From Desulfobacterales bacterium (GTDB taxonomy: Bacteria; Desulfobacterota; Desulfobacteria; Desulfobacterales; UBA5852): a DNA stretch of 64,000 nucleotides. This document shows positions 4,335 through 45,525 of this stretch, in pieces. The position numbers and the translations under genes were made by a program. Location: assembly GCA_963674755.2 (NCBI GenBank), contig CAXXVS010000002.1, forward strand, positions 1,856,001-1,920,000. The letters run 5' to 3'. Under the pieces are notes generated by a model, which ran no database searches, was not told the origin of the DNA, and worked only from the letters and a program-made list of their open reading frames with translations. Within the stretch, counting starts at the first letter, position 1, and each line of letters opens with the position of its first letter.

Positions 4335-5918
4335 TCATTCGGGCCCGGAATCCGCATTGAATTGTTTCCGGAGGTTGGTTTTCAGGATTTTTCCGGAACC
4401 GGTTTTGGGCAGCTCGGCAACAAATGCAATCTCTTTAGGGATCTTGAAGCGCGCCAGACGCTCCCGGCAAAAGGCCATCAGTTCCTCTCCTGTCGCGTCC
4501 TTCCCGGGTTTCAGGGCCACCACCGCCTTCGGCACTTCGCCCCATTTCTCATCCGGCTTGGCAATCACGGCACATTCCAGCACCGCATCATGGCGGTACA
4601 GGATATTCTCGACCTCGACGGAAGAAATATTCTCGCCCCCGCTGATAATGATGTCCTTGGCGCGGTCCACGATCAGGACATAGCCTTCGGAATCGACAGT
4701 CGCCAGGTCGCCGGTATGGAAATAGCCCTCTTTGATCGCTTTATGGGTTTCATCCGGCTGTTTCCAGTACCCCTTCATGACATTGTCGCCCCTCACAACG
4801 ATCTCCCCTACGCTCTGGCCGTCGCGGGCCACCTCATGGCCTTCGGAATCCACCACTTTCAGATCGACCCCCGGAACTTCCAGACCGGTGCGCGTCAGAT
4901 AGCCGATCTGATCCTCTTCCGGCAAATGCCGGAGGGTGTCCTTGATGTTGCCGACCGTCAAAAGCGGACAGGTTTCCGTCAGCCCATATCCTGAAACGTA
5001 AAGGCATCCCAACTGCTCCATCATGCGCTTGGCATTGGCCGGCGACATGGGCGCCCCTCCGATCATGATCCACTGGAGCGAAGACACGTCATATTGTTTC
5101 ATATCCGGCACATTGAGCAGGAAATTGACCATGGTCGGCACCATCATGGCGGCCGAGATCTTTTCATTCTGGATCGTTTCCAGCACGGTCACCGGATCAA
5201 ACATACGCTGCATGACGTGCCGGCCTCCCTGGTAGGTTACCGCCCAGATAAAGAAGGCGTCCGCCAGGTGGAACAAGGGGGCGATGTGATACCAGACCGT
5301 GGCGTCTTCCAGCTTGAATGCAATAATGGTGGTCAGGGCATTGGCGTAGATATTCCGGTGGGTGAGCATGACCCCTTTGGGATGGCCTGTTGTGCCGCTC
5401 GTGTAGTAAAGATTCAATACCGCATCTTCGTCCTCGACCATGGTCCCGACCGGTTCGGAGGAGGCTTTATCCATGAACGCTTCGTAACTATCCGTCATCC
5501 AGGGTTCGTCGGCCGGCCCTTCGGCAATCAGGAATTGTTTTACGTGGGGCAGGTCATCTTTGATCCTGGCCACCATGGGTTTGAAATCGGCCTGAAAGAT
5601 AAGGATTTCGGCCTCGGCATCGTTGAGAATATAAGTATATTCCTCGGCCGAAAGGCGAATATTGAGTGGCAGCAGAACCCGGCCCGTGGGCGCCACCCCG
5701 TAATACAATTCCATGTACCGGTAGGAATTGTAGTCCAGGATGGCAATCCGGCCGCCCTCTGAAACCCCTGCATTCTGAAAGGCGTTAAACACTTTGTTGA
5801 CGCGCTGTTCCACCTCGCGGTAGGTCCAGCGAACGTCACCGTCCACAACCGCAATTTTTTCCGGGTAGAGTTTTACGGCGCGTTTCAGGATGCGGCTTGG
5901 TGTCATGGCAACCTTCAT
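4335..5918 (-). CDS. Long-chain fatty-acid/acyl-CoA ligase (ANL family)
   Basis: YTSGTTGHPKG, GYGLTET, FHTGDL, DRAKDIIISGGENISSVEVE, PKTGSGK. Confidence 0.93.
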   Translation of the reverse strand: MKVAMTPSRILKRAVKLYPEKIAVVDGDVRWTYREVEQRVNKVFNAFQNAGVSEGGRIAILDYNSYRYMELYYGVAPTGRVLLPLNIRLSAEEYTYILNDAEAEILIFQADFKPMVARIKDDLPHVKQFLIAEGPADEPWMTDSYEAFMDKASSEPVGTMVEDEDAVLNLYYTSGTTGHPKGVMLTHRNIYANALTTIIAFKLEDATVWYHIAPLFHLADAFFIWAVTYQGGRHVMQRMFDPVTVLETIQNEKISAAMMVPTMVNFLLNVPDMKQYDVSSLQWIMIGGAPMSPANAKRMMEQLGCLYVSGYGLTETCPLLTVGNIKDTLRHLPEEDQIGYLTRTGLEVPGVDLKVVDSEGHEVARDGQSVGEIVVRGDNVMKGYWKQPDETHKAIKEGYFHTGDLATVDSEGYVLIVDRAKDIIISGGENISSVEVENILYRHDAVLECAVIAKPDEKWGEVPKAVVALKPGKDATGEELMAFCRERLARFKIPKEIAFVAELPKTGSGKILKTNLRKQFNADSGPE

Positions 5919-6040
5919 TGTCGGTCACTCCTTTCTGGTCTGTATTCCCTGCCGTATAGCCCATCAAACCTTTGTGATCGTCCGACGGCTACGAGAAAAA
6001 AACATCGACGGTGATGATCGATCGTGTTGCCTAAGTGGGG

Positions 6041-7225
6041 TCAGTTCAAGGCGACCGCACGGCTCAGCATGGCAACAGCCGCATCGATCTCCTCCATTTT
6101 ATCGGTCTGGCTGCCCTTTTCCGTAAACAGCCACCTGAGCGCCATATGGCTGAAAATGCCCATAAAAAGATTTCGGAAAACACGGTTATTGATTTCGGGC
6201 CGTATGCTGCCATCCGTTTTCCCCTCGTCCAAAATCGCATAGACGCTTTCGATATAGTGTTTGAAGGGCGGATAGGCATTGGAGACATAGAAGCGCGCGT
6301 TGTAAATGGCATCGAACAGGAACATCTTAACAAAAACCGGCTGGGTCAGGTAGATGGTGAAGTGATAGCGCATGAAGCGTTTCAGTTTGCGCAGGGGCGT
6401 TCTGACCTCGAACAACTCGTCAAGCGAATCCAGGTTGTTCCGGAATTGCCGCTCCAGGGTGGAAAAGAGCAGATCCTCCTTATTCTTGAAGTATTCGTAA
6501 ATGGTCCCTTCAGAGACTTCGGCCGATTTTGAAATCTCCTGTATCGTGGCGTTCTGATATCCCTTGGCCGCAAACACGTTTAAGGCCGATGCCAGAATCC
6601 TGCCGGCCTTGTCGCTATTGATGGCGGACGGCTCGGTATCGGGCCGAACCATCGGCAACAGGAGATCCAGAATGGCATCCAGATCCGTATGCGCCTGGGG
6701 CGTCTCCTGAGCGGCCATGCTCTGAATATTCTCCATATCCACCAATCCGAAAACAGCATCGCGAACAATCGTCGTGGCAAGGTCGTTTCGGAAGGCGCCC
6801 TCCGAGATCCCCCTGATGAGAATGCCCCGCCCGATATCCGACCAGCGCTTAATCATATGGTAAGCTTCATGCGCCATGAAACTCTTGCTTGAGCGGCATT
6901 CGAATAGCAGGAGGTTGGCATAGTCGGGATGGGTATCATGGTAGTAAAGCTGGAACCAGATCAGTTTACTGAGTTGGCTGACCGGGTCCATGATGCCCTG
7001 GAGTTGCTCTTCCAGCTTTGCGAGGGCATCGCCGAGGCGCTCTTGGGTGACGGAGAAAAGCAAGTCCTCTTTATTTTTAAAATAATGGTAGAGCATTGAG
7101 TCCGTTACGCCGGCAGCGGCACTTATTTCGCTGATGGTCGCGCTGCGCCCTTTTGTGGACATAATACTCTCAGCCGCATCCAGAATTTTCCACCTTTTGT
7201 CGCTCGTCATTGAAGTTCTCGCCAT
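6041..7225 (-). CDS. Tandem double-TetR/AcrR transcriptional regulator
   Basis: Two TetR HTH repeats (ATISEISAAAGVTDSMLYHYFKNKEDLL and ATIQEISKSAEVSEGTIYEYFKNKEDLL). Confidence 0.9.
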   Translation of the reverse strand: MARTSMTSDKRWKILDAAESIMSTKGRSATISEISAAAGVTDSMLYHYFKNKEDLLFSVTQERLGDALAKLEEQLQGIMDPVSQLSKLIWFQLYYHDTHPDYANLLLFECRSSKSFMAHEAYHMIKRWSDIGRGILIRGISEGAFRNDLATTIVRDAVFGLVDMENIQSMAAQETPQAHTDLDAILDLLLPMVRPDTEPSAINSDKAGRILASALNVFAAKGYQNATIQEISKSAEVSEGTIYEYFKNKEDLLFSTLERQFRNNLDSLDELFEVRTPLRKLKRFMRYHFTIYLTQPVFVKMFLFDAIYNARFYVSNAYPPFKHYIESVYAILDEGKTDGSIRPEINNRVFRNLFMGIFSHMALRWLFTEKGSQTDKMEEIDAAVAMLSRAVALN

Positions 7226-28357: not shown

Positions 28358-28436
28358 TCCCTATGGCAACCCGGCTGTCTCCATAAGACCCGTGGCTTTC
28401 CGTCCCCGCCTCGCGGCGGGTTTGGCTATCGCGTGT
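28358..28436 (-). ncRNA. c-di-GMP-I (GEMM-I) riboswitch, copy 1
   Basis: Minus strand GCCAAACCCGCC-GCGA-GGCGGGGACGGAAAGCCACGGGTC...GACAGCCGGGTTGCC matches the GEMM-I architecture. Confidence 0.92.
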
Positions 28437-28453: not shown

Positions 28454-29266
28454 TTAAGCTTCGGTTAATTCGGTAGCGCAGGAATAAGGGATTAGAGATC
28501 CTGTTAGTGCATCCCGCCAGATTTTTTCGCGATGGGCGGCTTCATACACGTCTTTCTCATCGGGAATTTTCTCCGCCACGTAGCCAACAATCCGTAATTC
28601 TTCCTCTGTAAGTGGTTCAGCTTCAATCATATCCGAATCTTTAATCGCTTTCACCAGATCTCTGTAATTATTCAACTGGGGACCATAGGTGATGGCGGCG
28701 TAGCTGGCACCTGTCAGGCCTGTGCCCAACTGGCGGAATGCCAGCATGTCGGCATACCAGAGATACTTGGCCAGGAATAACATCTTGTCGCCGGATTTAA
28801 GCAGGCGCTTTCCTAAAATTTGTTCAAACGTTTTTGCAACCAGCTTGATCCGGGGAAGACTTATCTCCCGGTTGCCGGTGTAGTTGTCAGCGCTGATATT
28901 GCATTGCAACTGCATCCGCAAGGCATGATCCATCGATTTGCTCTGAACCATGCCCGTCTCCCAGCGCTTGATGCTGGCAATACCGACATTCATCCTATCG
29001 GCCAGCTGCTGCTGGGTGAGTCCCTTCGCCTCGCGCAGGGATTTGATCTCCTGGCCGGTGAGTAAATCAACCTTGGCCCGGTAGGCATCGGCAATCGCGC
29101 GCTGCACCGCACCGGCCGACTGAACCGTCCCGGCCTCCAGGCCGCATTCCGGGCAGGTGTAAACCTCCACCGCGATGGCGATATCAACGCCTTTATAAGT
29201 CATTTCCTTTTGAACCGTATTTAATCCCATCGGTCCGTGACCTTTTGGGCAATTGAGGGTTTTCAT
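28454..29266 (-). CDS. Type II antitoxin: MqsA-like Zn-ribbon + XRE HTH + Panacea/DUF4065-like domain
   Basis: CPKGH...CPECG, LREAKGLTQQQLADRMNVGIASIKRWETG, KYLWYAD...YAAITYGP. Confidence 0.8.
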   Translation of the reverse strand: MKTLNCPKGHGPMGLNTVQKEMTYKGVDIAIAVEVYTCPECGLEAGTVQSAGAVQRAIADAYRAKVDLLTGQEIKSLREAKGLTQQQLADRMNVGIASIKRWETGMVQSKSMDHALRMQLQCNISADNYTGNREISLPRIKLVAKTFEQILGKRLLKSGDKMLFLAKYLWYADMLAFRQLGTGLTGASYAAITYGPQLNNYRDLVKAIKDSDMIEAEPLTEEELRIVGYVAEKIPDEKDVYEAAHREKIWRDALTGSLIPYSCATELTEA

Positions 29267-29337
29267 ACATCCTCCTTCATTGGCCGGTCCGGCTGAAGCG
29301 ACACAAGCCAAAACATCTCATTCTGCAGGGCAAACTT
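29263..29337 (-). pseudogene. C-terminal remnant of the cognate (MqsR/RelE-like) toxin
   Basis: KFALQNEMFWLVSLQPDRPMKEDV* ends in an ATGA overlap with the antitoxin start; no room for the rest of the gene before the promoter. Confidence 0.6.
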
Positions 29338-29429: not shown

Positions 29430-30271
29430 TTAAATTCTGTGTCCATTTTTGGCCTCTCCCTGCAAAGTGTAGCCCTCCTCGTTTGCTATAACTCTCCCCA
29501 GACGGGCCGCACGGCTGACGACCGATTGATTGAGACCAAGGCGCCTGGCTATATCGATGGTGGTGAGTCCGAGATCGTTGTGGGCGAAATGGCAGATCAA
29601 ACGCCTGGCCAGAACGCTTTTAGGGGTTTTGTCGCGGGTCAGAACCGTGGATTCGACCACATTCAATAATTCCGCGACACGGCTGACAACCTTTTCGAAA
29701 TCCAATCCCAGTGATCGCAGACGGGTATGCCGGGCCAGTTGTTCGTTGGCCCCGGCAAGCATCGCTTCCACAAAGTCGGAATCGCCCAAGACACGCTCGT
29801 CACCTTTCAATCGAACCCCGGCCTTCCGCAGTTTCTTGACGGTATCCCAGCCGCCGACGCTTCGAATAAGGCCTCCTTCGACCAGTCGCGCCCGCAGAGG
29901 ATTCAAGTGGATATAGCGCACAAGTTCCTTCAGGTACTTGTCTTCCTGGCAGAGGATGGATTTGTAGCGGTTCTGAAAGAGCGGTCCGTGCCGGCGGTAG
30001 TTGCGGTTGAAACTGACCGCATATCCGGTCAGCAGGCGCTGCATGACGCTGGCGATCGGCACCTCGCTCGATCTCAGCAGCAGGTGAACATGATTGGGAA
30101 TCAGCGCCCAGGCCAGGCATTGGGTACCGGTCTCGGTTATGAGAGTCGCGAGCCGATCGATAAACCCTCGCCGATCCACGTCGGAGCGAAAGATCTTGCG
30201 GCGTTCGATCCCTCGGACGATGATGTGGTGCACCGCCCCCTGGGAGCATCGATGCGGGCGCTACGCGGCAT
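29430..30271 (-). pseudogene. REP-associated tyrosine transposase (RAYT/Y1_Tnp), frameshifted and probably internally deleted
   Basis: MPRSARIDAP start is out of frame with HHIIVRGIERR; NHVHLL HUH motif, FQNRYKS, YIHLNP; LRARLV joins directly to EGGLIRS. Confidence 0.8.
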
Positions 30272-33794: not shown

Positions 33795-33961
33795 TTCAAT
33801 GCGATCCCTGATTACGGATATGAAGTCCTCAACGATCACTTATTGGTTCTCTTCAATACATATATTTGTGATGTGTAAATTTGGATCTACGGGGCGGACA
33901 TTGATAGATGTGCATCCGGTGAGAATAATTGCCGCTGATAAGAATAAAAGTATTCTTTCAT
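33795..33961 (-). pseudogene. Lipoprotein pseudogene downstream of riboswitch 2
   Basis: RBS GGAGG; restoring one A after ATG gives MKRILLFLSAAIILTGCTSINVRPVDPNLHITNICIEENQ*VIVEDFISVIRDRIE (lipobox LTGC); internal TAA; cut by the IS3 end. Confidence 0.7.
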
Positions 33962-33997
33962 AACAACCTCCATAGCTAAAAATCATGCATAAAACAC

Positions 33998-34047: not shown

Positions 34048-34126
34048 CTGATAGCGGCAACCCGGCTGCCTTCTGGAGGCCCGTGGCTTTCCGTCCCCAG
34101 CTCACGCCGGGTTTGGCTTTGTATAG
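34048..34126 (-). ncRNA. c-di-GMP-I (GEMM-I) riboswitch, copy 2
   Basis: Minus strand GCCAAACCCGGC-GTGA-GCTGGGGACGGAAAGCCACGGGCC...GGCAGCCGGGTTGCC. Confidence 0.92.
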
Positions 34127-34161: not shown

Positions 34162-34447
34162 TCGCCTCGCCTGTGGCGCTCGATCCGCCCCATGCTTGAA
34201 ACCTGGCTGTGTCTATAAGGTCCAACCAAGACGCTCCAGATGGCTACGTATAGCGCTAAGTTTCTCAAGGTGTGGAGTGAGATCCTCTAAGATAGGTCGT
34301 TCAATTCTGTACTCATCAGCGGCTGTACCCCAAAGCCTCCTAATCACGGCTCCCTTCCCATTTTTCCATTTTGTGTCACTCGAAATTAATCCTCGTCAGA
34401 GTTAACTTCTATCTAATCATAAATTATCAAGAAAGGAGGTGTACCAA

Positions 34448-34600
34448 GTGAGGAGAAAGCGCAGACCGTTGACCTTGGAAGCTGTTCAACGAATCATGAG
34501 AGCCACAGCAAAGAAAAATGGCGGCAAAATCCCCAAGAGGAGCTGGGCAGCAGAGGCGCAGAGAAGGCTTGCACGACAAGCAAGGAAAACCCCTGTCTAA
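34448..34600 (+). CDS. Small basic protein A (50 aa), SMP/LEA-like motif
   Basis: RBS AAGGAGGT + GTG; MRRKRRPLTLEAVQRIMRATAKKNGGKIPKRSWAAEAQRRLARQARKTPV; below the ORF-track cutoff; paralogous to the next ORF. Confidence 0.75.
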   Translation: MRRKRRPLTLEAVQRIMRATAKKNGGKIPKRSWAAEAQRRLARQARKTPV

Positions 34601-34629
34601 AACAACAAACCACAATGAAAGGTATTGAA

Positions 34630-34773
34630 ATGGCGGAGAAATCCACCCCAATGACCCAAAAAGATGCATCCAGGATTCAAAGCACCACGGCAAAAAACAA
34701 CGGGGGTGTCGTACCCAAGGACAGCTTTGCCTCAAGAGCCACAAGGGCAGCTGTAAAAAATTCTAAGAAATAG
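34630..34773 (+). CDS. Small basic protein B (47 aa), SMP/LEA-like motif
   Basis: MAEKSTPMTQKDASRIQSTTAKNNGGVVPKDSFASRATRAAVKNSKK; RBS-like AAAGG. Confidence 0.8.
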   Translation: MAEKSTPMTQKDASRIQSTTAKNNGGVVPKDSFASRATRAAVKNSKK

Positions 34774-35523
34774 CCGAGCTACGGATGCTTGAGGGTAAGG
34801 TTATGCCCTGCCCTCAAGCTCACAATTTCCATTGATGTAAGCGCGATATGTTTCTAAGTGATAATCGAACCACATTGAGTACCTTGCTCGTAATTCCGGT
34901 AATTCCTCGAAATTTTTCATTACGTTCCCCTTTCTTCGTAAGGCTAAAAGGAGAATGATAATGCAATGAAAGATACGGACAATGCCGTAGGTAATCCTAC
35001 CCCACGTCATCAGAAATTCAAAATATTCCACCCTGCTTTGATACATGTTTATGGCATTCTCAAGTAGTTTATCGACAGTATCCCACTTAGGTAAATGCCG
35101 CACGATTTTAGCACTTTTCCATCTCATTAGTTCTCTATATGCCGTATCTTCTGACTTTTCTGGAAACAGAGTTGCTGCCAGCTGTCTCAGTGATTTAATT
35201 GGATAGTTGGTATTCAGATGAGTTTTTAAATGATTTACCCACAGATCCATTGGGGTTATTATTTTTGTTTTTTCGATTTGAGGAAGGAATTTTAAGTATT
35301 TGGATCCTTTATTATCGTGGTACTCTTTAATGTAGTTCTCACTTGCCTCCACGTCTAATGCGGCAATTACAAATAAAAGCGAATCGATCCGCATTTGTAT
35401 GAGTCTCGTATTCATTTCATCGGCATCATTAGGTTTTGAGATAGTATGATTAAAGATAGTCGTATGTAAGAATGCTTCAGGCAACCAGGATGAGTAAAGA
35501 CATTTGATAGCATTATTAAGGTT

Positions 35524-37413
35524 GATGGCATCGTAAAAAGTCTATCCGCCTGAATTATTTAACAAAACGCCCAATTTCAGCTTGCCATTTTCTTCTCGTC
35601 ATGCTACAGGAAACCAAACAATTACAGATGGTTATCCTGGAGATCGCATGCTTCGCATCAAAGACCACAAACAGCAACATCTCTTCGACCCGTGGGCCTA
35701 TTTGAGCCCCAAACGGCGCCGGATGCTCGAAGAGGGCTGGCCCGGGTTGTTCCGCCAGCATCTGCTCGGAGAACTTCCCGTCGATCTGTTAAAACCCTTC
35801 TTCACTGAAGCCATAGGGCGGCCCACCAAGGAACTGCATACCCTGCTGGGAGTGATGCTTTTCCAGCAAACCATGGATTTAAACGATGTCGAGGCCGTCG
35901 AGCAGCTGGCCTACAACCTCCAGTGGCATTATGCTCTGGACATCACTGAAGAAAGCGACGAGGCCAAATACGTCAGCGAAAAGACCCTGTGGTCGACCCG
36001 CCAGCTGATGGCCGAAAATGGCATTGACGGGGTCATGTTCGAAAAGCTCACCGACAAATTGGCCAAAGTGTTCGGTGTAGATCCTTCCAACCAGCGCATC
36101 GACTCGGTACACATCCGCTCCAACATGCGCCGGCTGGGCCGTATTGCCATTTTCAGCCGCACGATCGCCAAGTTCCTGGTCAATCTCAAACGCCACCACC
36201 GAGAGCTGTTCGATACGATCGCTTCTGATGTGATTGATCGTTACTGGGGTGAGAAGGCCCTATCCGCCTTTTCTCTGGTTAAACCCACGGAATCGGAAAA
36301 GACGTTAAAACGGGTCAGCAATGATCTGTTCGATCTGATCGAGGGCTTCAAGGACCAAACGGCGGTGGCTTTCATGCACAGCTACAAGCTCATGCAGCGG
36401 GTGCTCGCCGATCAATGCCATGTCGAGACCGATGCCGCCGGTGCCCCCCAAGTAACGATAAAGAAGCCGGCCGAGATCCCCTCCGACTCATTGCAAAACC
36501 CTTCGGACCCGGAGGCCACCTACAGCGGCCACAAGGGCCAGGGCTATCAGGTCCAGATCATGGAGAGCTTCAGCCGCAGTGAAGAGGCCAATGAAAAAGA
36601 GCAGGCGCTTAACCTGATTACCCATGTCGAAGTTCAACCCGCCTGCGAGAGCGATGCGGAGGCCGTGGTGCCGGCCATCGCCGATACCAAGATCCGGGGT
36701 GTGGGGCCCGATCAGTTGGTCGCCGACACTTTGTACGGCAGTGACAGTAACCACCAGACGGCCCAAGTGGCCGATGTCGACCTTGTCGCCCCGACCCAGA
36801 AGGGCAATGAGTCCAAGCCGCTCACGGCGTTTAGCTTTAATGACAAGGGCTATGTCGAGACCTGTCCGGCGGGTCACGTTCCCGAGCAGGTGAAGCACAA
36901 GAAGAAAACCGATTGTTACAGCGCGGCCTTCGATTCCACGCTTTGCCAGGGATGTCCGCATGCGGGTCATTGCCCGGTCAAGCCTGGGAAAAAGAAGAAC
37001 TATCTGCGCTACAGCGGAAAGCAATATCGCCTATCGGTGCGTCGCAAGGCCGAGAAAAGCGAGGCTTTCATTGACACCTATCGCTGGCGGGCCGGTGTGG
37101 AGGCCACCATGAGCGAATATGATCGGCGCACCGGGGTCAAAAAGCTACGGGTTCGGGGCATGCCGGCGGTGCGCTTCTGTGCCAAAATGAAGGCCACCGG
37201 GCTCAATCTGCTACGGGCGGCCCGGGTTCGCAGGGCCAGAATGAAGGCCGCAGAGGGTAATCCGGGCCTTGATCACCGTATTACGACTGCTGTTTATCGT
37301 GTCAAAGAACGTTTACAGGCCGCTCTGGTGGAATTTGCCTTCGCTTGGACAAATTCGTCGGGAAGATATCCAGAAAGCTACAAATTGGCCGCCTGATTTT
37401 TTACGCGGCCATC
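35524..37413 (+). mobile_element. IS1182/IS5-like insertion sequence
   Basis: TIRs GATGGCATCGTAAAAAGTC / GATTTTTTACGCGGCCATC; 6-bp target duplication AAGGTT (35518-35523, 37414-37419). Confidence 0.9.
35648..37396 (+). CDS. DDE transposase (IS1182/IS5-like)
   Basis: GRPT, QRIDSVHI, SLQNPSDPEATY, VADTLYGS, Cys-rich insert, YRWRAGVEAT. Confidence 0.9.
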   Translation: MLRIKDHKQQHLFDPWAYLSPKRRRMLEEGWPGLFRQHLLGELPVDLLKPFFTEAIGRPTKELHTLLGVMLFQQTMDLNDVEAVEQLAYNLQWHYALDITEESDEAKYVSEKTLWSTRQLMAENGIDGVMFEKLTDKLAKVFGVDPSNQRIDSVHIRSNMRRLGRIAIFSRTIAKFLVNLKRHHRELFDTIASDVIDRYWGEKALSAFSLVKPTESEKTLKRVSNDLFDLIEGFKDQTAVAFMHSYKLMQRVLADQCHVETDAAGAPQVTIKKPAEIPSDSLQNPSDPEATYSGHKGQGYQVQIMESFSRSEEANEKEQALNLITHVEVQPACESDAEAVVPAIADTKIRGVGPDQLVADTLYGSDSNHQTAQVADVDLVAPTQKGNESKPLTAFSFNDKGYVETCPAGHVPEQVKHKKKTDCYSAAFDSTLCQGCPHAGHCPVKPGKKKNYLRYSGKQYRLSVRRKAEKSEAFIDTYRWRAGVEATMSEYDRRTGVKKLRVRGMPAVRFCAKMKATGLNLLRAARVRRARMKAAEGNPGLDHRITTAVYRVKERLQAALVEFAFAWTNSSGRYPESYKLAA

Positions 37414-38277
37414 AAGGTTAGTCTCACTTATTTTATCACTATCACTGTCATACAAATCTTTCACAAACTCGTTTGAGGTGCGTCGAAGTTTTCCTATCAC
37501 GTTTTGCGTATATGGAAGAACTACTTCACCTCGACTATTGTAAAGAGTTGGCAAATTCTCAACTTCCCAAGACTTTCTACCTGAAAAGGCATCCTTTAAT
37601 ATCGTTTCCAGGTTAGGATCAATGTAGGCATTATGGTTGTTTAGTGCTGTTATAAAGTCAGAGATGAAAATGAAAGTTTTGGAAAGAGTTGGAGTTGTAT
37701 CCCCGCACAACCAATTGTTCAATGTATGATCCGTGACTTTTCCTCCGACCCATTCACTGTTGCTGTCAGTACTGATCACTTCGAGATCTGATAGGATTGA
37801 GGTCAAGTTTAACCCCAGCATATAAAAAATCACTTCCCAAGGCATCATGATCATTTAGTAGCACCTAAGTAATTTAATATTTTTCTCTGTAATTTGGCGC
37901 GGAGTTGTTCCTTAAACAATGAATACCCAATGATCCACAAACCAAATCCTGATCCACTATCCGAAGCCCTGGAATTGATCCCTATGATCGTAGATCAAGG
38001 ATTAAATGACTCCGCTTGTGGAATAGACTTAGCAAGACGAAAACCCAAAATAATTTTTCGATCGCCGGGCAAAAAGTCAGGTCGTTCAGTCGTCCTGCAG
38101 AACTCATCACTGAACTTCCAACTGCCGCCTCGGAATATCCAATACTTTTGAAGCTCTGCCGGAGCCTCCAAGCTCCTTCAGGACTTCGAGGATTGGTATG
38201 ATGTAATGAAAGTGTTGGGGGATTCGCAGATTTTCCATTGTATCTCCCTTTCGGATGATCGCAGTATGGTCTAACGG

Positions 38278-38494
38278 ATCCGCCGACCATCAGATCGGCC
38301 CGAAAGCCTTCCTCGAACGCCAGACCCTCGTATTGGATAGGAATGGCCTTCTGGCGCTCCACCGCAAGTCCCGCCTTTTCTATTTCATGCGCCAGCACCG
38401 CTTCATAGACCGACTCTAATAAACCTGGCCCCATACCGCGGTGGGTCTTATAGGCGGCATCCACGATGGCTTTGGCAATGTCGTTTTCGTGCAC
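38278..38494 (-). pseudogene. GxxExxY-family protein, N-terminal fragment
   Basis: VDAAYKTHRGMGPGLLESVYE...FRADLMV; family similarity stops where the low-GC segment begins. Confidence 0.85.
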
Positions 38495-38564
38495 TTTCTG
38501 TCCCTCACGCTAAGAAATGCTTAAACTGATGATATCTCGCGCCAAGAAAGCCTAAAAACATATC

Positions 38565-38705
38565 CTCACGCAAAGCCGCTAAGGACGCAAAGAACTGCAA
38601 AAAAAATGGGTGTCGGCCGGAGGCCGGAAAAAGCATCTGTTGCTTTTCTTGGCGGTCTTTGCGCCTTGGCGTGAGGCATGGTTTTTTGGGATTGCTTTGC
38701 GTGGG
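38565..38705. repeat. CACGCAAAG...CTTTGCGTG palindromic repeat element, copy 2
   Basis: Inverted copy of 28155-28271; directly upstream of the GxxExxY gene. Confidence 0.8.
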
Positions 38706-42154: not shown

Positions 42155-42571
42155 TCATTGACATTCCTGAACCATTTCCTCGATCGACTTGCGAACCAAG
42201 CTTGTTCGGACTGACTGCCCCCGGGCGATCAGAACATTATCCGATGCGTCACGGAACTGGATTTTCAGCATCAACAGGTAGTTGGTCATGTCCCACATCC
42301 AGCGGTCTTCGTACATGACGACCACCTCGGTGCCGGCAGGCATGTCGGCTTCCAGACCCGACGATACGCGTTGCAGGCCCATGGCGCGCATTTCATTGGC
42401 GACAGTCAGGTCGATCTGACGTGGATCATTCGCATGACGCACCACATAGTAGCTTTTGTCAGGACCGATTACCGCATTCGGGAGCACCCTTGAGTTGATG
42501 TATTGCGTGTAGCACCCTGTCAGCGCGGCCAAAGATACCGCCAGCAGGACCAAGATTGAAAACCTTCGCAT
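42155..42571 (-). pseudogene. Lipoprotein truncated near its C-terminus by IS21 (first gene of the riboswitch-3 operon)
   Basis: Lipobox LTGC; native tail TLVAILSPKTKEV* lies at 39418-39459 on the other side of the IS. Confidence 0.8.
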
Positions 42572-42711: not shown

Positions 42712-42790
42712 CATCAGGGCAACCCGGCCACCTCGTTAAGGTCCGTGGCTTTCCGTCCCCGGCTCACACCGGGTTTGGCTTTTCCGGGCG
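42712..42790 (-). ncRNA. c-di-GMP-I (GEMM-I) riboswitch, copy 3
   Basis: Minus strand GCCAAACCCGGT-GTGA-GCCGGGGACGGAAAGCCACGGACC...GGTGGCCGGGTTGCC. Confidence 0.92.
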
Positions 42791-44273: not shown

Positions 44274-44945
44274 TCAAAACTCCAAGAGTTTTTTTGCCAG
44301 GCTGTGCAGTTCGTCATTCGCAAGAGCAACTACCTTCTTTTTGACCGTCCGTGAATAATATTCCTTTTCGGTCTTGGTCAGCGGCAGCCCTTCGAGCTTC
44401 TTCTTGAACAACTCCTTCTGCTTAGGCGAGAACACCTGGGATAAGGCGTACTCCAGGGAGAATTCGGCATGCTTTTCCTGGCGGCGCTTGTCCGTTTCAG
44501 CCTTTTTCTCGAAATAGAGATCGAACAGCCCCTTGACGCGCTCTGAATCGAGGACGGTATTATCCCATCTTATCGTACGATCTCGCGCCAAATCCTTTTT
44601 CCATGCCCGAACCAAAGCCTTCTCCTGTTCAGAAAAGGTTTTTTTAAAAGCTTGCCACCAAGAGAAGGACAAGTGATACAGCGAAAACAAGACACCGGAA
44701 AAGAGCAACAGGCGGCGGAAATGATCTTTCTGCCATTGGTTATCCAAGTGCTGCTCGACCAGATCCGGTGCGAACTGATAGGTTTCCGCAGCATTGGCCA
44801 ACAGCACCGGGAAACCTTCCCAAAGTCGCGTATCGACACTTTTGACGACCTCGGCCAGGGTCTCGTTGACATCCAGTTGTTCGACGGGCTCGAACATCGG
44901 GAAGCCGAGCCTCGACAAGCTGGACAGAAGTTTCTGATCAGCCAT
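44274..44945 (-). CDS. Hypothetical partner protein of the nucleotidyltransferase
   Basis: 223-aa ORF overlapping the upstream stop by 8 bp; basic helical C-terminus FSPKQKELFKKKLEG...TKTEKEYYSRTVKKK. Confidence 0.8.
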   Translation of the reverse strand: MADQKLLSSLSRLGFPMFEPVEQLDVNETLAEVVKSVDTRLWEGFPVLLANAAETYQFAPDLVEQHLDNQWQKDHFRRLLLFSGVLFSLYHLSFSWWQAFKKTFSEQEKALVRAWKKDLARDRTIRWDNTVLDSERVKGLFDLYFEKKAETDKRRQEKHAEFSLEYALSQVFSPKQKELFKKKLEGLPLTKTEKEYYSRTVKKKVVALANDELHSLAKKLLEF

Positions 44946-45525
44946 AGAGGCCCCTTTCTTTCAACAAATCCAAGAAATGATCGATATTCGGCCGCAAGCG
45001 GTGTTCGGCAACGTCATAGCGGACCAAATCAATAAAGTGACGGACCAATTTTTGGATATCGAGCGTTGCGTAATGGGCCTCGGCTAAACTTACACAGTCG
45101 TCGAAATCGACCCTGGTGCCCCGCATCAGTTTACTGGCGATCAAGTCGTAATCGTTTAACATACCGATATAAAGATACGAAAATTCCATAAGTGCAGAAT
45201 GTCGCCCCTCATCGAGCGGGGAATCCAGCAGTTCCGTCGTGTGAATTCGATTCCCACTGAAGATATCGAAACGGAAATCCTCCCCTGAGCGCATCCAACC
45301 GGCACCGGTCGTCTGCTCGTAGCCCAGCGCTTTCAACCGTTTTATCAGATAATGATACTCGGCTTCCCTGGGCGCCATAAAATCGACATCCTTGGTCGAC
45401 GGTTTTACCCCCAGCAAAGTCATGGCCGTGCCGCCACAGGCGATAAGGTGAACTTTACGCCTGAGGAATCGGTTCCACTCCCCAAGTATGCCAAGAAGCC
45501 TGTTTTTATCTAGCCTGTAGACCAT
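44938..45525 (-). CDS. Pol-beta-fold nucleotidyltransferase (DUF6036/AbiEii-like)
   Basis: CGGTAM...STKDVDF (GG + DxD) motif, DLIASKL.RG...DFDD. Confidence 0.8.
   Translation of the reverse strand: MVYRLDKNRLLGILGEWNRFLRRKVHLIACGGTAMTLLGVKPSTKDVDFMAPREAEYHYLIKRLKALGYEQTTGAGWMRSGEDFRFDIFSGNRIHTTELLDSPLDEGRHSALMEFSYLYIGMLNDYDLIASKLMRGTRVDFDDCVSLAEAHYATLDIQKLVRHFIDLVRYDVAEHRLRPNIDHFLDLLKERGLYG

Follow-up and report, generated by a model that had tools for sequence, protein, structure and literature searches.

A broken copy of an apparently undescribed mobile module that joins an HTH-type protein to small SMP-like and other peptides in a Desulfobacterales bacterium

The molecular role of seed maturation proteins (SMP) of the late embryogenesis abundant (LEA) class is ill-defined even in plants. 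In bacteria, the hydrophilins GsiB and YciG/KGG-repeat proteins are products of chromosomal general-stress genes, and regulators of the RRNPP type act with cognate peptides, as in Rap/Phr, AimR/AimP and PlcR/PapR. Plant SMP/LEA D-34 members have masses of 16.7-26.8 kDa and grand averages of hydropathy (GRAVY) of -0.1 to -0.56 (PMC2292704). In this study we describe a locus in a 64,000-nucleotide stretch of a Desulfobacterales genome (GCA_963674755.2, contig CAXXVS010000002.1, positions 1,856,001 to 1,920,000; hereafter the window), where two small SMP-like genes, p1 and p2, face a large gene for a helix-turn-helix (HTH) protein. The locus is a broken copy of an apparently undescribed mobile module whose layout recurs in unrelated bacteria and which, judged from sequence, looks like one serving a stress or anti-virus function. 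No description of the module was found in the literature searched; most subscription papers and bioRxiv supplements lay outside that search, and a mention in a supplement is possible.

The first-pass annotation of the window had proposed two tandem paralogous open reading frames (ORFs) of about 50 aa with a likeness to SMP/LEA proteins, and this was borne out. The two peptides align with each other at E 3e-12 (19/47 identity, ~40%), and each gene has a ribosome-binding site (RBS), that of p2 being AAAGGT, 6 nt ahead of the ATG. On the Pfam SMP model, p2 scores 24.7 bits (gathering score 22). p1 was without a match in the Pfam scan and reached E 3e-10 on the bacterial SMP profile A5, from whose construction it had been excluded. 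Against 75 distinct metagenome SMP genes, mismatches at codon positions 1/2/3 numbered 994/831/1982 for p2 and 1210/1097/1958 for p1, and the excess at the third position indicates that both genes are real and coding. From their sequences, p2 is a genuine SMP-family (PF04927-like) gene and p1 probably another. p1 is the more basic, divergent paralogue (net charge +15, isoelectric point 12; p2, +7), and GRAVY values of -1.08 for p1 and -0.95 for p2 denote high hydrophilicity, as in LEA proteins and hydrophilins. No hydrophobic stretch or leader was visible in either sequence by eye and GRAVY, no signal-peptide predictor having been used. An SMP profile search gave 1239 clusters among the 8000 candidates scored, with Proteobacteria, Bacteroidota and Fusobacteria among the groups named, and some bacterial members are already labelled 'SMP domain-containing' in databases. 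Above the Pfam cut-off, SMP was found in 1/400 other genomes; the family is wide, yet rare per genome. p2 had no match in annotated phages and no PHROG match.

Like plant SMP/LEA D-34 proteins (Arabidopsis RAB28 and ECP31), p2 exceeds the cut-off of PF04927 and has the hydrophilic low-complexity motif. Unlike the plant proteins, p1 and p2 are 5-kDa, single-motif, strongly basic proteins (GRAVY about -1) located in mobile islands, and bacterial SMP genes are arrayed with two unrelated peptide types. The module peptides resemble the GsiB and YciG/KGG hydrophilins in being tiny, charged, Gly-rich and probably disordered; however, they show no sequence match to them, and they are rare, island-borne and accompanied by a dedicated HTH neighbour.

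The large gene runs on the minus strand from 37854 to 34801, and its stop lies 27 bp from that of p2, a distance already given in the first pass. It had been annotated as a convergent gene of ~385 codons; the length is right once an insertion sequence (IS) is removed (147 + 238), but the gene is not intact. The IS of 1.9 kb has terminal inverted repeats, an AGGT target duplication and three further full-length copies elsewhere in the genome. Together with one duplication it measures 1896 bp, a whole number of codons, so the gene is split in frame. No read joint bypassing the IS occurred in 3 DNA runs, all from one study and possibly from the source sample. Both halves match P0002, an intact 381-aa homologue (Table 1), and phmmer with the large protein against 1.84 billion representatives gave 14 matches, 2 of which were the window's own halves. 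The cassette has low GC, as had been noted: 38-39% in the large gene and 47% in the small ORFs, versus 57-58% in the genome. The large protein had no useful match in Pfam, NCBIfam, PADLOC or PHROGs; the best match of any window gene in PADLOC 2.0 (E 0.002) covered 57 residues only and was too little to be counted.

Table 1. Coordinates of the cassette features in the window
Feature	Position	Strand	Basis
p1 Shine-Dalgarno sequence AAGGAGGT	34433-34440	+	7 nt ahead of start; read from sequence
p1, 50-aa divergent SMP-like peptide	34448 (GTG)-34600	+	profile match, codon bias
p2, 47-aa canonical bacterial SMP-family peptide	34630-34773	+	Pfam PF04927 above cut-off
GC-rich hairpin over the last codons of the large gene, probable shared terminator	34787-34819		folding; comparable hairpin at 6/6 junctions
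Large gene, 3' part, ~238 codons: helical linker, XRE-type HTH, terminal helices	34801-35522	-	53% to P0002; fold search on intact homologues
Insertion sequence, DDE transposase (DUF772 + DDE_Tnp_1_6), short target duplication	35523-37414	+	Pfam, repeats, genome copies
Large gene, 5' part, ~147 codons, probable first HTH	37415-37854	-	59% to P0002

The hairpin between the facing genes was not flagged by a scan for terminators with a U-tail, and promoter and terminator scans of the region returned chance level only.

That the large protein contains an HTH, as first annotated, is supported by fold searches on intact homologues. Predicted models of two of them are all-helical (predicted local distance difference test scores 67 and 74), and residues ~215-340 align with XRE HTH domains at a moderate Z of 4.5-7.2, with root-mean-square deviations (rmsd) of 2.2-4 for compact matches. 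The proteins found are mainly XRE regulators: Stl (Z 7.2, rmsd 2.7, 85 aligned residues), HigA, CapH, DdrO and CI. On these models, the C-terminal half of the large protein holds an XRE/lambda-repressor-like HTH. A second HTH probably lies at the N-terminus, where the sequence gives a 47.5% profile match to the HTH2 profile. Foldseek comparison of the models with PDB and BFVD gave no match at E<=0.001. Neither half nor P0002 matched a Pfam HTH model, the HTH_3 clan included, at E up to 10, and the window-type protein had no Pfam match to a tetratricopeptide repeat. The modelled likeness to SaPI Stl, CapH, ImmR, DdrO and HigA thus consists of the same HTH fold over ~65-85 residues and an island context. 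Unlike these regulators, the large proteins have the HTH in the C-terminal half of a helical protein of 340-390 aa with a probable second HTH and no Pfam HTH match, no cognate protease gene or operator was found, and the gene is convergent with a peptide operon.

Overlapping genome samples of 61, 401, 401 and 301 yielded five full-length homologues besides that of the window. In all six, which are the full-length homologues with known surroundings, the large gene faces an operon for small peptides at a distance of 21-42 bp, and a strong hairpin covers its end at every junction. The peptides are not the same everywhere. The homologue in genome G013 faces an acidic Asn-rich ORF of 47 aa and that in G028 a Pro/Gly-rich ORF of 38 aa; these two defined the new peptide types, and their profiles were made before the loci of G806 and G815 were met, which served as blind tests. 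G815 has a Pro/Gly-type peptide (E 4e-10), and G806 has both types (E 1e-8, the acidic peptide reaching only E 0.006). In G444, first met from the SMP side, the homologue lies on a relaxase-bearing element and is convergent with an SMP gene and an acidic peptide gene. SMP is therefore present in 2/6 loci, the others having acidic Asn-rich or Pro/Gly-rich peptides, which speaks against the first-pass idea of a fixed trio. In a 400-genome sample, SMP above the cut-off and the large family each occurred in one other genome; it was the same genome, the genes were adjacent, and the large-family protein scored E 5e-26 on a profile built without it. Both gene types are rare, at about 1 in 400 and 1 in 100 genomes, and the large-gene homologues, from genomes of different families, are ~20% identical to each other.

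These observations bear on the idea that there is no functional unit here and that standalone hydrophilin genes are hitch-hiking beside an island regulator. SMP genes are indeed solitary in many loci and the window region is an IS-rich island, but the geometry is fixed in 6/6 loci with varying peptides, with partners so diverged, in different families and with both gene types rare, and we regard hitch-hiking as very improbable.

By profile A5, SMP was not found in G013, G028, G806, G815 and G048 (91-99% complete; the search had no positive control). G025 and G048 gave partial matches, both to longer, ankyrin-bearing relatives; the one in G025 has a fused double SMP directly upstream. Several matches were dropped: G387 (E 7e-4, an MlaD-like transporter gene), G138 (E 2e-4, an oxidoreductase subunit), peptides in G344 and G070 without a start codon, and an SMP match in G567 that was under the cut-off and had an internal stop. 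Plasmid searches with the P0009, L107 and L068 proteins gave no matches.

From the peptide side, linkage was counted in the best 80 of at least 225 metagenome loci in which SMP was confirmed, collapsed to 52 clusters, 7 of which have <600 bp of downstream sequence. An HTH gene of the superfamily, often of the HTH-helical-ankyrin form, lay within 700 bp in 21/52 clusters (4 convergent as in the window, 16 co-directional downstream, 1 divergent), and no superfamily profile match occurred beyond that distance. As controls, 142,902 genome ORFs gave the window's own genes only, and reversed ORFs gave none. In profile comparisons, the ankyrin-type N-terminus matched the window's family at 95% over the HTH region, the convergent 405-aa type reached 86%, and controls stayed <3%. 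Classic divergent XRE genes are among the partners (L045, L056), and 8/52 clusters adjoin an unrelated 110-aa family (0.2% profile match to the large protein). Acidic peptides accompany SMP in 6/52 clusters and Pro/Gly peptides in 8/52, all three types occur together in three clusters, and SMP-Pro/Gly fusions exist in two loci. Among 301 genomes, the Pro/Gly profile gave 7 matches, of which 5 were real; three were the G028, G815 and G806 loci. In G005, from the window's genus, an N-terminal fragment of the ankyrin type comes after the Pro/Gly peptide, and in G203 the Pro/Gly peptide is solitary. Two of the three peptide families have no Pfam or PHROG model. The earlier proposal that the three genes travel together as one unit thus holds for their co-occurrence, as in G444, but not as a fixed trio: the partner of the large family may be any of three unrelated peptide types, that of SMP may come from several HTH families, and in 23/52 clusters no partner was detected by profile.

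Some further features of these loci were seen. In L133 (G005), a basic ORF of 33 aa (1380-1490), preceded by a good RBS, comes after the Pro/Gly peptide and before the ankyrin-type fragment and may be a fourth peptide type. The acidic peptides include a subtype with terminal Tyr-Trp-x-Ser-Arg-Gly (L002 1138-1281, L127 1291-1416) and one with doubled Asn-Pro-Asn-Asn (L032 5858-5992). Next to the richest peptide arrays (L048, L061, L062, L086, L098, L101, L104, L105, L010) lies an unnamed helical family of 110-135 aa that by eye looks like an HTH; it had no Pfam match and no detectable kinship to the large protein. A convergent neighbour of 121-135 aa recurs in L061, L086, L105 and L010, in three cases with an N-terminal zinc ribbon.

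The peptide sequences, with short invariant motifs in an otherwise disordered chain, are near-constant across phyla, and their HTH partners have diverged to ~20% identity. This matters for the idea that the peptides work inside the cell on the HTH protein, as its ligands or antirepressors, by a logic like that of SinI-SinR, MOR-CI or RRNPP and with no export. The strict adjacency of peptide and HTH genes would suit it, as would the long helical and ankyrin repeat regions of the relatives, which could bind peptides, and the invariant motifs. The locus also resembles RRNPP systems in having an HTH protein, repeat domains in relatives and an adjacent short peptide gene. However, cognate pairs would be expected to co-evolve, and the pattern here is the reverse. 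The same peptide types adjoin the unrelated 110-aa family, and, unlike RRNPP peptides, they show no hydrophobic leader, are conserved across phyla rather than cognate-specific, and come in several types per locus. We therefore consider a ligand role improbable.

Many-to-many pairing with peptides far more conserved than their partners speaks against cognate binding and points to a regulator whose target operon is swappable. Likewise, promoter control fits better than one-to-one binding with oppositely charged peptides that are paired with several HTH families, including divergent XRE genes. The reading that we favour, and to which we give an even chance, is a mobile two-part module in which an HTH transcription factor controls a swappable operon of disordered peptides acting on conserved targets. 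The genes, their layout, the HTH fold and the peptide swapping are shown here. In the proposed mechanism, an XRE-type factor, probably with two HTH domains around a helical domain, faces a short operon of micro-peptides, whose interchangeable families number at least three (basic SMP-like, acidic Asn-rich and Pro/Gly-rich), and the facing operons would share the terminator hairpin. The HTH protein would act in trans by binding the promoter of the peptide genes, and its helical part, ankyrin-extended in relatives, may sense the cue, be it stress or phage, that throws the switch. Rather than acting on the regulator, the peptides would then serve as hydrophilin-like protectants or decoys with conserved targets in the host or phage. 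In the window, the IS insertion has inactivated the putative regulator and left the two SMP genes as orphans.

Several points weigh against the two-part module. No operator was found, upstream motifs and palindromes being at shuffle level in 6/6 loci (a weak test), and a convergent layout is unusual for a regulator and its target. Every fold Z-score is <8, a range that the tool itself calls common. On the peptide side, 13/21 of the linked clusters depend solely on the ankyrin-type profile, which was itself derived from SMP neighbours; the same neighbours entered the iterations of the core profile, whose un-iterated form reaches only 4/52 clusters. The 23/52 clusters lack a profile-detected partner of either the superfamily or the 110-aa family, and none was detected in any of the 7 actinobacterial loci or in one locus from Cloacimonadota. 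Finally, in G048 no peptide match lies within 12 kb of the ankyrin-type gene.

A further competing account takes the locus for an anti-phage sensor or a unit akin to toxin-antitoxin systems, with the large DNA-binding protein as its effector or switch. Unstable peptides would restrain this protein or serve as decoys, and their removal, through phage shut-off or by a phage protease, would lead to arrest or to induction of neighbouring defence genes. Among 54 hand-picked neighbours, chosen without a background set, are prokaryotic viperin (pVip), SspB, type I restriction-modification, cytosine methylase, McrB-like ATPase, Ppl-like and Fic genes, those of restriction type being frequent, and pVip genes adjoin SMP in L038 and L108. 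The PADLOC 'Ankyrin' model PDLC02908, numbered next to the pVip models, probably represents the ankyrin gene reported beside prokaryotic viperins. It matches SMP-adjacent relatives strongly over its N-terminal part (L114, E 6e-51; L118, E 9e-21) and the HTH region of the G013 and G025 proteins weakly. The window protein differs from it in having no ankyrin repeats, no match to the model and no adjacent viperin gene, the link running only via the HTH region of relatives. The large gene is IS-broken in the window, L123 and L124, as would be frequent for costly genes. However, three unrelated peptides of opposite charges would all have to neutralise one family, the window-type protein has no PADLOC or NCBIfam match at useful scores, G048 carries the ankyrin-type gene without peptides, and none of the peptides occurs in the 5 plasmid pVip loci examined out of 12. 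Unlike type II toxin-antitoxin systems, the module gave no match to a toxin domain when compared with Pfam, NCBIfam, PADLOC and PHROGs, and its genes are convergent rather than a two-gene operon. The IS knock-out with both peptide genes intact, along with solo SMP genes elsewhere, suggests that the peptides, if expressed, are not toxins needing this partner. We hold this account to be unlikely. In one of the plasmid pVip loci, L138 from Sulfitobacter (4879-6116), pVip is followed by an unannotated ORF, presumably HicA-like, and a convergent 343-aa protein with a 9% profile match to the large family.

A broader reading, which we hold to be somewhat doubtful, would extend the two-part module to a widespread, undescribed class of bacterial immune or stress modules. 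In it, an HTH sensor superfamily (two-HTH and HTH-helical-ankyrin forms, including the viperin-catalogued ankyrin gene) would be combined with exchangeable arrays of disordered, extremely conserved peptides. These would counter phage as decoys, sensors or effectors, and the bacterial counterpart of plant SMP/LEA would be one of their families.

The cassette sits in an IS-rich island with IS110, an IS3 remnant, IS21, a RAYT-like transposase, and antitoxin-like and nucleotidyltransferase genes, ~8 kb from two tRNA genes. Three c-di-GMP-I-GGC riboswitches lie within 15 kb, all on the minus strand (28361-28435, 34052-34126, 42714-42788), two of them upstream of small lipoprotein-like genes (33840-33986, truncated beside the IS3 remnant, and 42155-42571), and the genome has seven other similar stretches. 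The riboswitch at 34052-34126 was rejected as a part of the module because it points away and similar copies exist at other places in the genome. At 28454-29311, a single 285-aa protein combines an MqsA-like zinc ribbon with HTH_3 and Panacea (SocA) antitoxin domains. The RAYT-like Y1 transposase gene (29430-30233), a PD-(D/E)XK_3 gene remnant (37982-38494) and an inverted repeat with 50-bp arms (38551-38689) possibly form a REP/MITE-type element family. Near the tRNA genes, a DUF6036 nucleotidyltransferase gene followed by a 223-aa gene (44274-45525) is a possible abortive-infection or toxin-antitoxin pair.

In conclusion, three unstudied families of micro-peptides and an unnamed HTH superfamily acquire through the module a genomic context, and hence a function that can be tested. 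Small intact cassettes of ~1.5 kb exist and are ready for assay, and a single-motif bacterial SMP with a linked regulator is a simple model for the role of SMP/LEA proteins. A role in phage defence, if true, would add a kind of system based on disordered peptides.

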